Source: Patescibacteria group bacterium (GTDB lineage: Bacteria > Patescibacteriota > Patescibacteriia > UBA11705 > JABHMO01). Taken from it: a stretch of 25,606 bases of DNA. The translations under genes and the position numbers were made by a program. The stretch lies in contig JBBTXH010000082.1 of the NCBI GenBank assembly GCA_038062385.1, forward strand, positions 3,749-29,354, given 5' to 3'. The notes below the pieces were generated by a model, which saw nothing but the letters and a program-made list of their open reading frames with translations, did not search any database and was not told the origin of the DNA. Below, in pieces: positions 10,622 to 15,398 of the stretch; the first letter of the stretch is position 1, and each line of letters begins with the position of its first letter.

Positions 10622-10692
10622 TTCGGGCGGGAGGGATCGAACCTCCATAATAGGATCCAAGGTCCTGTGTCCTACCATTGAACGACGCCCGA
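10622..10692 (-). tRNA. tRNA-Gln(TTG), island copy (C33, C27-A43 mismatch)
   Basis: TCGGGCG/CGCCCGA acceptor, GTTC/GGAC D-stem, CAGGA CCTTGGA TCCTA anticodon arm, GGAGG TTCGATC CCTCC T-arm; no encoded CCA. Confidence 0.88.
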
Positions 10693-10708
10693 TTTGGAAA
10701 TAAAATCG

Positions 10709-10782
10709 TGTCTCCAACGAGATTTGAACTCGTGTCACCGGCGTGAAAAGCCGGTGTCTTAATCTGGCTAGACGATGGGGAC
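10709..10782 (-). tRNA. tRNA-Glu(TTC), with deviations
   Basis: CCGGC TTTTCAC GCCGG anticodon arm, ACGAG TTCAAAT CTCGT T-arm; acceptor C4-A69 mismatch; D-loop lacks GG. Confidence 0.85.
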
Positions 10783-11093: not shown

Positions 11094-12158
11094 ATGCCAA
11101 AATTAAACAAAAGGTTCTCTTTTAATCCCGAAGCAACCCACAAAATCTATGGCCTGATCGCGCAAATCGACGAACTGAAAGGCCAATGGAAAATGGGAGC
11201 GAATCTGTCACCGCAGACTTTAGGCATGCTGAAAAGATCGGTCATTGTCACGTCCTCTGGTGCGTCCACTCGTATTGAAGGAGCGAAGCTTACCGATGAA
11301 CAGGTTGAGAAATTGCTCAAAGGGTTGAAGATCCAAAAACTGGCCACTCGAGATGAACAAGAGGTCGCCGGCTATGCCGAGCTGCTGACCAATGTTTTTG
11401 ATTCATACAAAAAGTTGGAACTGACTGAAAGCACGATAAAACATTTCCACAGTGAACTACTGAAGTACTCGGATAAGGATGTTCGCCACCGCGGCGAGTA
11501 TAAATTTGGCACTAACCGAGTGGAAGCCAAGGATGCCGACGGGAAGGTGGTCGGCGTATTGTTCGACCCTACCCCGCTTCATTTGGTTGCCAAGGAGATG
11601 CAAGAACTTATTGAGGAAACGAAAAAACTTTTGGAAGCAAAAGAAGTCCATCCCCTGATTGTTATCGCCGCTTTTATTTTTGAATTTTTATCCATCCACC
11701 CGTTCCAAGACGGGAACGGCAGATCTTCTCGCGTGCTAACAAATTTGTTGCTTTTAAAGAACGGCTATGAATACATGCCGTATGTTTCGCATGAGAAATT
11801 AGTGGAAGACAATAAGAATGAATACTATCTTGCTCTCAATCGAACGCAACGAACGTGGAAAACGGAACACGAAGACATCAGTCCGTGGCTGTTGTTTTTC
11901 CTGAATATTATGCTCAAGCAAACTCAAATCGCAATCGGGTTGTTATCCAAAGAATCCATTGAAAATATGCTTTCGGAAAAACAACTGGCCGTCTGGCATT
12001 ATTTCAGCGCGCACGACACCGTAACGCCGAAAGAATTGCGAGACAACCTTAAAATTGCCGGGCCGACAGTGGCGCAAATTTTAAACAAGCTTTTGGAAAT
12101 GAGAAAAATTGAACGCCTGGGAGCTGGCAGAAGCTCAAGGTATCGATTGCTTAAATAA
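11094..12158 (+). CDS. Fic-family protein (class II-like) with C-terminal winged HTH
   Basis: Intact HPFQDGNGRSSR active-site motif; N-terminal STRIEG inhibitory motif. Confidence 0.93.
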   Translation: MPKLNKRFSFNPEATHKIYGLIAQIDELKGQWKMGANLSPQTLGMLKRSVIVTSSGASTRIEGAKLTDEQVEKLLKGLKIQKLATRDEQEVAGYAELLTNVFDSYKKLELTESTIKHFHSELLKYSDKDVRHRGEYKFGTNRVEAKDADGKVVGVLFDPTPLHLVAKEMQELIEETKKLLEAKEVHPLIVIAAFIFEFLSIHPFQDGNGRSSRVLTNLLLLKNGYEYMPYVSHEKLVEDNKNEYYLALNRTQRTWKTEHEDISPWLLFFLNIMLKQTQIAIGLLSKESIENMLSEKQLAVWHYFSAHDTVTPKELRDNLKIAGPTVAQILNKLLEMRKIERLGAGRSSRYRLLK

Positions 12159-12160
12159 CT

Positions 12161-12418
12161 ATGTCGATAAAAATCAAGACGGCGCATGCCCGCAATTGGT
12201 TCTACGGCAACATCTGCACCAAAAAGTGTTACGCCGACATTGAAAAGCAAAAACATTGCTATGATAAAATGGCCGAGATGATCAAAGGTAATGAAGACTA
12301 CTTCATTACGCATAACACCTTTGTTAAAACAATACGCCAAAAACACAAAGAAGTCTGTGACATTTCCGATGAGCTTTTTAACCACAATGAAAGCGATTTT
12401 TGGCATCGAAAACTTTAA
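12161..12418 (+). CDS. Hypothetical 85-aa protein
   Basis: Packed 2-3 nt from both neighbours in the same direction; no motif recognised. Confidence 0.65.
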   Translation: MSIKIKTAHARNWFYGNICTKKCYADIEKQKHCYDKMAEMIKGNEDYFITHNTFVKTIRQKHKEVCDISDELFNHNESDFWHRKL

Positions 12419-12421
12419 TTT

Positions 12422-14594
12422 GTGATTGATCTAACTCCCCAAGAAAAAATTGCTTTGTTTAAATCCCTCTTCCGCGGAAGAGAGGATGTTTTTGCCGTGC
12501 GCTGGGAGAAAAAAGACGGTTCAGCTTCCGGCTATACGCCCGTTTGCCTGAATGAATGGAAAACCGACATATGCAACAAGCTCCAAAGCAAAAAATGCAA
12601 GGATTGCGCTCATAGCCAATATATCGGGATCAGCGAGCAACACATTGAGCAGCATCTGCGCGGCGCGAAAACATATGGAATTTATCCATTATTGAATGAC
12701 AATTCATCCTGTTTTATTGTCGCTGATTTTGATGGGAATGATTGGCAAGAAAAAATCGACGGGTTCCATGGCATTTGTTCAAAGCATGATCTGCCTGCAT
12801 ATATCGAACGCTCGCGCTCCGGCAATGGCGGCCATGCCTGGATATTCTGTGAGGACAAATACCCTGCCTACAAAAGCAGAAATGTGGTCATTAACCTGCT
12901 GAAAGAAGCGGGCATAATTGATCAATTTGAAAAAGACGATTGCTTTGACCGGTTATTTCCCAATCAAGACGCGCTTAGCGGCAAAGGTTTCGGCAACCTT
13001 ATCGCCTTTGCCGCTACAAGGTGAGGCGCGCAAGCGCGACAATACCGTATTTTTAGATCCTGACGCTAATTTGTTGCCGTTTGCCGACCAATGGGAATTA
13101 TTGAAACTGATAAAACGCGTTCCAATCGCGCATTTGGATAAATTGCATGCTCTTTTCAATTCCGCCGGCGCGGAGCCGAGTTCGTCGGCTTCCGAATTAA
13201 GCATTACCGTCGGAAATATGCTTTTCCTGAATAAATCCTTTCTGCCTAAGATTTTGATAAATTACCTGAAAGATACGCTTAATTTTCTAAATTCCGACTT
13301 TCTGATAAAAAAGAAAATCGGTGCTTCGGTGTATAAGGTGGGAAAATATTTCAAGCTGATTCAAACGTTTGACGATACCATCGCCATCCCGCGCGGTTTT
13401 CTGCATAGATTGACTGATTTCCTGAAAGAAAAGCATACTGAGTATAAAATTGATGATCGGCGTTTAAAGCTCGATGAAGTAAAATTTGAAAACAGTATCA
13501 AATTGTTCCCTCATCAGGTCGAAGCAGTTGATAAAATGATCGCCGTTGACGCCGGCGTCCTAGTTGCGCCGCCCGGCTCAGGGAAAACAATCATCGGGCT
13601 AGACATAATTGCCAAACAAAAACAGCCGGCCTTGATTTTGACGAATAAAAAGCAAATCTTCAACCAATGGCTGGAACGAATAGAAGGGTTTCTTAATTTA
13701 CCAAAGCGCCAGATTGGACAATATACCTCGAATAAGAAGAAGCTTGGAGAAAAGATCACGGTCGCGATGGTGCAGACGCTGAACAACGCGGCCGAACAAG
13801 AACTCGCCGGAAAATTCGGCCTGATACTGGTGGATGAATACCATCACATGCCCGCAAAAATGTTCCGCAACGTCATCACCAGATTCAATCCTTATTTTCT
13901 TTACGGACTTACGGCCACGCCAAAACGAAAAAACAATGACACGGATTTGATCTTCTTCTTTCTCGGCGATATAATCCACACCATGCCGAATTCATTCGGG
14001 AAACCGGAAGCCGCGAAACAAAGCACCGTAGTGGCAAAGTCGCCCAGTGGTTTGAAAGTTATCATTAGAGAAACGGATTTGTCCGTTCCGTTTAAAGTCA
14101 AGACGGACAATGTGCAGATGCTGTACAAAATTATCACTTTTGATACGGCGAGAAACAAGCAAATCATTGCCGACATCAAACGCGAAGCGGAACAGAACAA
14201 ACGGTGCTTGATTTTGACCGAGCGCAAGGAACACGTGGATGTTTTGAACTCCTATCTGAAGCGAGAATATGAAACTATCATTCTGACAGGCGACTTAACC
14301 GAAAAACAGCGTCGACTGAAAGTGAAGCAGATCCAAGCAGGGCATTTCCAGATACTTATCGCCACCGGCCAGCTCATCGGAGAAGGAACTGATTTTAACA
14401 ACTTAGATTGCCTTTTTCTTGCATTTCCCTTTGCCTTTGAAGGCAAATTGACGCAATATATCGGGAGGATCAACCGCGGTCTGAATACTGGCGGAACGAT
14501 TTATGATTACAATGATAGCCAAGTCGAATATCTGAAAAGATTTTTCAAAAAGCGGAATGCTTATTATCGGAAGAACTTCGAATGTGTGCAATAG
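12422..14594 (+). pseudogene. AEP (TOTE-type) primase domain plus SF2 DExH helicase, split by one +1 frameshift
   Basis: LFRGREDVFA, GIYPLL, ADFD, ERSRSGNGGHAWIF, DRLFPNQD primase-like motifs; removing one T of TTT 13007-13009 restores GNLIALPLQGE; helicase APPGSGKT, DEYHH, TAT, QYIGR. Confidence 0.8.
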
Positions 14595-14642: not shown

Positions 14643-14670
14643 AACCTCATCGTGCGATGACGATGAGGTT
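14643..14670 (-). terminator. Terminator of tRNA operon
   Basis: AACCTCATCGT gcgatg ACGATGAGGTT, 11 bp, T-tract on minus strand. Confidence 0.75.
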
Positions 14671-14676
14671 AATGAG

Positions 14677-14748
14677 TTCGAGCGGGAGGAATCGGACCTC
14701 CGTTCCGGGATCCAAAGTCCCGTGTCCTGCCAACTGGACGACGCTCGA
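14677..14748 (-). tRNA. tRNA-Gln(TTG), resident copy
   Basis: TCGAGCG/CGCTCGA, CGGGA CTTTGGA TCCCG, GGAGG TCCGATT CCTCC (C at position 55). Confidence 0.9.
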
Positions 14749-14775: not shown

Positions 14776-14926
14776 GTGATTAGCGCACTGGCATTATGCA
14801 AGTCGCCGCCACTTATGTGGAAGCCACGCCCGTAGATTACTGCTCCTTATGAGCGCGTAATCACCAACGCCTTGTCGCATTTGCGCCTGCCAAGTTTCCC
14901 GGGCCGGGTTCTTGGCAACTAATCAC
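14776..14926 (-). ncRNA. Unassigned 151-nt structured RNA within tRNA operon
   Basis: 8-bp closing helix GTGATTAG/CTAATCAC, several internal helices; G-U pairs favour the minus strand. Confidence 0.6.
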
Positions 14927-14928
14927 AG

Positions 14929-15013
14929 AGGAAAGAGTGGGATTCGAACCCACGGAGGCTTTCACCTCTGCGGTTTAGTAGACCGCCGCCTTAAACCACT
15001 CGGCCATCTTTCC
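14929..15013 (-). tRNA. tRNA-Ser with ACT anticodon
   Basis: GGAAAGA/TCTTTCC acceptor, GCGGT CT ACT AA ACCGC, long variable arm, GTGGG TTCGAAT CCCAC. Confidence 0.9.
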
Positions 15014-15036: not shown

Positions 15037-15177
15037 AGGAGGGAGTGGGATTTTCATCTCGCCAGCGGGCGGGACGGGCTCCACGGGAGCTTTCACCCCA
15101 GTGGTTTTCAGGACCACCGCCTTAAGCCGCCCCGCCTTCGCATGAAGCTATGACGGGGCAAGCTCGGCCATCCCTCC
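15037..15177 (-). tRNA. tRNA-Ser(TGA) with D-loop and T-loop hairpin insertions (141 nt)
   Basis: GGAGGGA/TCCCTCC acceptor, GTGGT CCTGAAA ACCAC, variable arm GGGGTGAAAGCTCC; insertions at 15129-15161 and ~15055-15080. Confidence 0.8.
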
Positions 15178-15369: not shown

Positions 15370-15398
15370 ATTATAGCATATCAGAAATTTATTGTCAA
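15370..15398 (-). promoter_or_regulatory. tRNA operon promoter
   Basis: Perfect TTGACA-17-TATAAT with extended -10 TG. Confidence 0.85.

Follow-up and report, generated by a model that had tools for sequence, protein, structure and literature searches.

The locus described here lies in a 25,606-nucleotide stretch of Patescibacteria DNA (termed the window) and raises the question of whether a tRNA-Ser gene with the anticodon ACU is genuine and, if so, which codons its product would read. A reading made from the sequence alone had described A34, the adenosine at the first anticodon position, as highly unusual in a two-codon box, and the literature agrees: a 2021 review treats A34 anticodons of split boxes as 'prohibited' and calls them, with ACU of the Ser-Arg box included, universally missing, in phages too (PMC8007984). 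A literature search for bacterial or phage tRNA-Ser(ACU) turned up no paper about it. The sequence-only reading had further proposed that inosine or unmodified A34 at this position could also read the arginine codon AGA, which would imply an altered TadA range or new decoding rules. The explanation favored here, which we regard as probable, is that the gene encodes a genuine, selection-kept, AGU-specific tRNA-Ser(ACU) of a phage-associated lineage, which serves as a supplement to, or a backup for, the core tRNA-Ser(GCU) and leaves the genetic code unchanged.

Structure of the tRNA-Ser(ACU) gene and reality of its anticodon

The window was analyzed with ARAGORN, which called five tRNA genes, including a tRNA-Ser(act) at 14928-15013 on the minus strand. 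The Rfam tRNA model RF00005 matched the gene (Table 1) over its full length with 60.7 bits (gathering score 29; E = 4.5e-11) and zero non-canonical pairs flagged, and the intact tRNA-Ser with A34, the paired stems and the plus-strand AGT triplet reported by the sequence-only reading were thus all confirmed. The acceptor stem (GGAAAGA/UCUUUCC) has seven pairs, and the 3-bp D stem (GCC/GGC) is accompanied by G13-A22, a combination characteristic of serine tRNAs. A 5-bp anticodon stem (GCGGU/ACCGC) carries the loop C32 U33 A34 C35 U36 A37 A38, the variable arm (GAGG-UGAAAG-CCUC) is 14 nucleotides long with a 4-bp stem, and the T arm is standard, with the stem GUGGG/CCCAC and the loop UUCGAAU. Every conserved tRNA core base is present (U8, A14, G18G19 and the TPsiC loop).

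The gene does not encode CCA, and U73 stands at the discriminator position, where G73 is usual. In E. coli, G73 contributes to serine identity, and serine charging of the window tRNA could therefore be weak. U73 is also found in the Ser(ACU) gene of a genome from another Falkowbacteria genus of the same family (G009), in several viral Ser(ACU) genes, and in tRNA-Ser(UGA) and tRNA-Ser(CGA) genes with the same acceptor stem on 111 metagenome contigs, and it is thus a recurring natural variant. The ACU anticodon was absent among those 111 contigs.

The reality of the anticodon was assessed using public groundwater runs, in which the window stretch was found in several studies. The gene was spanned by a contig of 5127 nucleotides (run X1, study P1) and by one of 8269 nucleotides from another year (run X2, study P2), and in both the AGT at 14977-14979 was unchanged. 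The base check that the sequence-only reading had proposed, which asked whether the reads carry GCT, therefore came out as AGT, and an assembly error at the anticodon was ruled out by long contigs of two separate studies. Variants with TCA in place of AGT were seen solely in short contigs that were merely 85-90% alike, and are for that reason assigned to tRNA-Ser(UGA) genes of other organisms. A contaminant contig was also ruled out, as the GC content of the window (38-48%) is similar to that of the genome (41%) and the locus is syntenic with that of G009.

Table 1. Coordinates of the tRNA operon and associated features in the window, in the direction of transcription of the tRNA genes.
Feature	Position	Strand	Basis
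Sigma-70-type promoter TTGACA-17-TATAAT, extended -10 TG, 27 nt upstream of tRNA-Lys	15370..15398	-	12/12 consensus match
tRNA-Lys(UUU), first gene of the operon; extra copy (core copy on contig C21)	15271..15343	-	ARAGORN, Rfam
Ser(UGA)-like tRNA, C33, U73, hairpin inserts in D loop and T loop	15037..15177	-	Read from sequence
tRNA-Ser(ACU), class II, U73, CCA not encoded	14929..15013	-	ARAGORN, Rfam, all 24 stem pairs standard
Anticodon ACU (plus-strand AGT); A34 is the complement of T14979	14977..14979	-	Sequence; long contigs of two studies
Spacer of 151 nt separating Ser(ACU) and Gln	14776..14926	-	
tRNA-Gln(UUG), closing the upstream half of the operon	14677..14748	-	ARAGORN, Rfam
Intrinsic terminator, hairpin followed by T run	14643..14670	-	Sequence
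Inserted islet: Fic gene, 85-aa ORF, AEP (TOTE-type) primase and SF2 helicase in two overlapping ORFs	11094..14594	+	Pfam
tRNA-Glu(UUC) and tRNA-Gln(UUG, C33), downstream half of the array	10622..10782	-	ARAGORN, Rfam

Distribution of tRNA-Ser(ACU) in genomes and viruses

The wider distribution of the gene was explored with a motif in which a serine-type D loop, the anticodon loop CTACTAA and the T loop were tied together. The motif is restrictive, and the counts that follow are lower bounds; moreover, the viral contigs are mutually related and some are perhaps misclassified. In 185,579 species genomes the motif matched 15 loci, which included several Polynucleobacter, G009, two further Patescibacteria MAGs (one of them labeled Pseudomonadales) and one Succinatimonas MAG, together with a Kitasatospora locus that ARAGORN did not call as a tRNA. 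At the class level, the source genome (G000) was the sole match to the strict motif among 401 genomes, while a looser motif detected Ser(ACU) in 3 of 150 other Patescibacteria genomes.

Several Polynucleobacter species (L032, L039, L041-L046) carry an intact tRNA-Ser(ACU) with G73 and CCA, often beside Gly(CCC) and Thr(CGU), with four or more intact copies in one strain. Ser(GCU) is retained in these genomes, which also have TadA. In another Patescibacteria MAG (H52-bin113_1, G418), 8 nucleotides separate Ser(UGA) from Ser(ACU) (L054:9260-9441) at a place where relatives have a UGA and GCU pair. The serine tRNAs found in this MAG have the anticodons UGA, ACU, CGA and GGA, Ser(GCU) was not found in it, and the reading of both AGU and AGC may depend on ACU alone there. 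The MAG labeled 'uncultured Pseudomonadales' (L038, CAZUBK010000002.1) is ~1.0 Mb in size and encodes tRNA-Arg(GCG), and the 62-nucleotide core of its Ser(ACU) is identical to that of L435, from a genome (G560) placed in the phylum of the window; the label looks wrong.

In IMG/VR, 58 contigs matched the motif and ARAGORN called Ser(act) in all 58. The gene nearly always lies among other tRNAs, with Ser(gct) adjacent in a single contig, and the corresponding GCU version of the motif (CTGCTAA) was present in at least 117 viral contigs. Some of the viral Ser(ACU) clusters contain other A34 tRNAs, namely Leu(aag), Phe(aaa), Asn(att) and Ser(aga) (L060, L078, L079, L088, L089, L092, L093, L095, L101, L102 and L110); the split boxes of Phe and Asn are among those for which a review calls A34 universally missing. 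Ser(act) also occurs in the cultured jumbo phages Hallingskeid (Erwinia, PQ464590) and Munch (Salmonella, MK268344), under the bare annotation 'tRNA-Ser'. No cultured phage matched L103, the viral Ser(ACU) type that is commonest.

The nearest relative of the window gene is found on a viral contig (L104), with 87.8% identity over 90 nucleotides, and both genes have U73 and no CCA. Identity to the G009 copy is 81-82%, and to Ser(UGA) genes of relatives 82-85%. The body of the window tRNA is closer to the Ser(UGA) type than to the host's own Ser(GCU), to which just the T arm and the 3' side of the acceptor stem correspond. The window tRNA shares with those of phage clusters (for example IMGVR_UViG_3300027749_000701, Munch and Hallingskeid) a class II body, an identical CUACUAA loop and a setting within a multi-tRNA cluster. 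It differs from them in being chromosomal, at a site that is syntenic in two Falkowbacteria genera, and in belonging to a host that is not AGU-rich.

Codon use in the viral contigs was then compared. The fraction AGT/(AGT+AGC) was 0.70 for Ser(ACU) loci versus 0.45 for Ser(GCU) loci, and an AGT excess of +0.12 was left after the general NNT preference was taken into account (Mann-Whitney p = 3e-5, with contigs that are non-independent and ORF proxies in place of genes). The AGT-rich character of the viral Ser(ACU) loci supports an AGU-specific decoder.

An accessory tRNA operon and the possibility of a toxin-proof set

Ser(ACU) belongs to an array of six tRNA genes, one of them broken, in which the order is promoter, Lys, broken Ser(UGA), Ser(ACU), spacer, Gln and terminator, followed by the islet and then by Glu and Gln. 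Core counterparts of the Lys, Glu and Gln genes of the array, with different sequences, are encoded at other places in the genome. The array is flanked by genes for glycosyltransferases, a sugar transferase, TrpRS and RNase J, an arrangement syntenic with that of G009. No phage genes were seen around the Ser(ACU) locus, which does not lie in a phage or prophage. A cluster of extra tRNAs that duplicates the core set and has atypical members is known from the trn operon of Anabaena; the window array differs from it in being small, with six genes, in belonging to a ~1 Mb CPR genome and in having phage-like serine tRNAs.

The AEP protein of the islet was detected in 3 of 61 related genomes and was not found in G009, which indicates that the islet is a later insertion. 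Repeat inserts disrupt the Ser(UGA) gene and the islet splits the array, so that the operon is eroding in the source genome. The AEP primase and SF2 helicase ORFs (12422-13024 and 12918-14594, plus strand) overlap, and the AEP profile runs into the second ORF, which suggests a putative frameshift; in other genomes the two form a single fused gene, as in G053 with an open frame of 530 aa. The TPR-CSD and TBP components of a TOTE conflict system were not found beside the AEP gene, where just AEP-TOTE, the helicase, Fic and the 85-aa ORF are present. TOTE was considered as a tRNA-related system and rejected, since the name stands for TPR, OB, TBP and Effector, and since the AEP-helicase is sporadic in relatives and not found in G009. 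A functional link between the AEP-helicase of the islet and tRNA is not claimed.

U33 is near-universal in tRNAs. In the array it is replaced by C33 in the Ser(UGA)-like gene (15037-15177, minus strand; loop CCUGAAA) and in the tRNA-Gln(UUG) at 10622-10692 (minus strand; loop CCUUGGA), and C33 also occurs in the Ser(UGA) of the G009 array (L021:9430-9515). Of 52 viral contigs that matched a corresponding motif (L271-L322), 51 were called as having the C33 form of Ser(UGA), and one of these (L280) has the same acceptor stem, D arm and U73 as the window Ser(ACU).

These features bear on an alternative account of why the gene was kept, one that is compatible with AGU-specific decoding. The array could be phage-derived and act as a reserve against toxins that cut tRNAs: members with changed anticodon loops, namely Ser with A34 and both Ser(UGA) and one Gln with C33, would sustain translation once the core tRNAs had been cleaved by nucleases directed at tRNA. 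Lys(UUU), Glu(UUC) and Gln(UUG), which the array duplicates in addition to Ser, are classical targets of anticodon nucleases. The C33 bases of two array members and of the 51 viral contigs are in keeping with such a role, as are the Fic gene and the conflict-type AEP-helicase inserted in the array. On the other side, we know of no nuclease that targets tRNA-Ser(GCU), the loops of Lys, Glu and the second Gln are ordinary, and the link of Ser(ACU) to AGU-rich viral genomes fits simple codon matching. Phage tRNAs have been proposed to evade nucleases by changes in the anticodon loop (PMC10264068). On balance, this role against toxins seems unlikely, though it deserves consideration. A domesticated toxin-proof set of phage origin, in which A34 and C33 would be escape variants and a phage counter-defence would be reused by a tiny symbiotic bacterium, is to be viewed with the same reserve, as a speculative suggestion.

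Conservation of the gene in relatives

The tRNA genes Lys-Ser(ACU)-Ser(UGA)-Ile-Glu-Pro-Gln were found in synteny in G009, between the same flanking genes and with a promoter (TTGAC-N17-TATAAT) at a position matching that of the window promoter. Between the stems of the two Ser(ACU) genes, 18 pairs are the same, four have changed on both sides and two on one side, and none is broken, while the spacers of the two arrays no longer align. Compensatory changes without a broken pair, between spacers that have diverged, would point to selection on a working tRNA and argue against a dead copy. The same picture was seen more widely: in a comparison of 23 diverse Ser(ACU) genes, 99.3% of the cells pair, 19 of the 24 pairs have changed on both sides, and the stem of the variable arm covaries.

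At the same site in other members of the family there is mostly no tRNA, and one genome (G002) has Lys-Ala only; the array is for this reason best described as a variable accessory feature. Such patchiness would also be expected of a relic, that is, the leftover of a horizontally acquired array, out of translational use and intact by chance. The existence of a core Ser(GCU), the disruption of the adjacent Ser(UGA), the split in the array and the atypical U73 could all be read in the same way. The relic account does not sit well, however, with four compensatory and no disruptive stem changes relative to G009 despite fully diverged spacers, with a perfect consensus promoter that is also present in G009, or with the complete set of conserved tRNA core bases. 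Judged by these substitution patterns, and by the compensatory changes in particular, a relic appears less likely than the toxin-backup set, and we consider it distinctly improbable.

The tRNA set, TadA and codon use of the host

The source assembly comprises 1.08 Mb in 152 contigs with 41% GC, and is 100% complete by marker genes. The sequence-only reading had set its proposal against a genome with a normal tRNA-Ser(GCT) and a silent ACU copy, and the first half of that picture was found: a genome-wide tRNA scan detected an intact tRNA-Ser(GCU) on contig C39. It is the downstream copy of a tandem pair of tRNA-Ser(GCU) genes (C39:841-1073, minus strand), and the upstream copy is broken by a hairpin insert of ~33 nucleotides in the T loop plus stem mutations. 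The scan also showed that the genome encodes tRNA-Arg(UCU) and tRNA-Arg(CCU), that it has tRNA-Arg(GCG) in place of ACG, and that it contains no further A34 tRNAs. tRNA-Ile(UAU) and tRNA-Arg(GCG), encoded on contigs C152 and C109, are uncommon choices in bacteria, and tRNA-Arg(GCG) is present in several related genomes too.

No intact tRNA-Ser(UGA) was found anywhere in the assembly by ARAGORN or BLAST, and UCA is the commonest serine codon of the genome (13.5 per 1000). The sole UGA-type serine gene is the hairpin-interrupted copy of the window (15037-15177). Either an ordinary Ser(UGA) copy is unassembled, or the interrupted window gene is the working one.

A search of the 152-contig assembly with a TadA model did not find tadA, the best match scoring 21-22 bits against a cut-off of 150, while a Polynucleobacter positive control scored 203 bits. 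The best match in the source genome is a fusion of a ComEB-like dCMP deaminase with a ThyX thymidylate synthase domain, and no other gene of deaminase fold was found there; the fusion protein has 615 aa and is encoded at C59:1736-3583 (L030:1477-3324). TadA was likewise not found in four related CPR genomes (G009, G418, G001 and G002). The machinery for a serine tRNA was detected: a SerRS with an N-terminal arm domain is encoded on contig C133, and a member of the CCA-adding enzyme family and an RNase P RNA are present.

Codon use is ordinary, with AGT at 9.9, AGC at 11.6, AGA at 9.3 and AGG at 3.0 per 1000 codons in 542 long ORFs. AGU is thus not favored over AGC by the host, and since the host is not AGU-rich, Ser(ACU) would be a supplement or backup from a phage-like array rather than an adaptation to codon use.

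The substrate loop of TadA is CUACGAA, from which the window loop CUACUAA differs at position 36 alone, and this likeness is the point in favor of inosine at A34, made by a TadA of wider range, or of AGA being read as well under altered decoding rules; with tadA not found in the source genome or in four related ones, with Arg(GCG) in use, with Arg(UCU) and Arg(CCU) present, and with AGA used at the frequency of an ordinary arginine codon, this reading can be dismissed as extremely improbable. The tRNA-Arg(ACG) that TadA acts on resembles the window tRNA in having A34 and in an anticodon loop with a single difference, and the window tRNA is set apart from it by U36 in place of G36, by serine rather than arginine identity and by the failure to find tadA in its host. 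The two mechanistic proposals of the sequence-only reading, an altered TadA range and the reading of AGA under new rules, consequently did not hold up, and they are also at odds with the behavior of an ACU anticodon in TadA-bearing E. coli, where it is unedited and AGA is unread (PMC11066159).

Predicted decoding by A34

Returning to the favored explanation of an AGU-specific tRNA, the prediction for decoding rests on two further considerations, charging and codon pairing. A bacterial tRNA-Ser(GCU) and the window tRNA have in common a long variable arm for serine identity and service of the AGY box. G34 of Ser(GCU) reads AGC and AGU, whereas A34 of the window tRNA is expected to read AGU only. 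SerRS does not recognise the anticodon, and the long variable arm is its main recognition element; serine identity should therefore survive the change to ACU. A34 should remain adenosine because TadA was not found.

What an unedited ACU anticodon does is known from an orthogonal tRNA in E. coli, which was not edited to inosine despite the presence of TadA and which decoded AGU at 9.4% and AGG at 0.36%, with AGC and AGA below detection (PMC11066159). A natural tRNA with unmodified A34, the tRNA-Thr(AGU) of Mycoplasma, occurs in an organism without editing and resembles the window tRNA in this respect (PMC11066159). The Mycoplasma tRNA, however, serves a four-codon box, in which loose reading is harmless, whereas ACU belongs to the split Ser/Arg box.

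In the proposed mechanism, the whole operon would be transcribed into one precursor, RNase P and 3' nucleases would process it, and the CCA-adding enzyme would supply the CCA end. SerRS would then charge the tRNA with serine by way of the long variable arm. The unedited A34 would pair in Watson-Crick fashion with AGU, and AGC, AGA and AGG would hardly be read. Ser(ACU) may thereby supplement or back up the core tRNA-Ser(GCU) with the genetic code unaltered, and it would belong to a lineage that resides mainly in phage tRNA clusters and turns up here and there in CPR/Patescibacteria genomes. Redundancy with the core Ser(GCU), the U73 base, the eroding operon and a host that does not favor AGU count against this explanation.

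Implications

For the source genome, neither recoding nor a new editing enzyme need be assumed. The window instance adds an operon context, a viral nearest relative and a host in which tadA was not found. Ser(ACU) is common in phage tRNA clusters and recurrent in CPR bacteria. Genes of this kind are labeled simply 'tRNA-Ser', and their anticodon is overlooked. The window gene and its relatives, with their conserved and covarying structure, are natural counter-examples to the notion of a 'prohibited' A34. The question of why cells avoid A34 thus becomes testable with natural tRNAs, in terms of fidelity in decoding AGU versus AGC, AGA and AGG, of charging with U73 and of modification.
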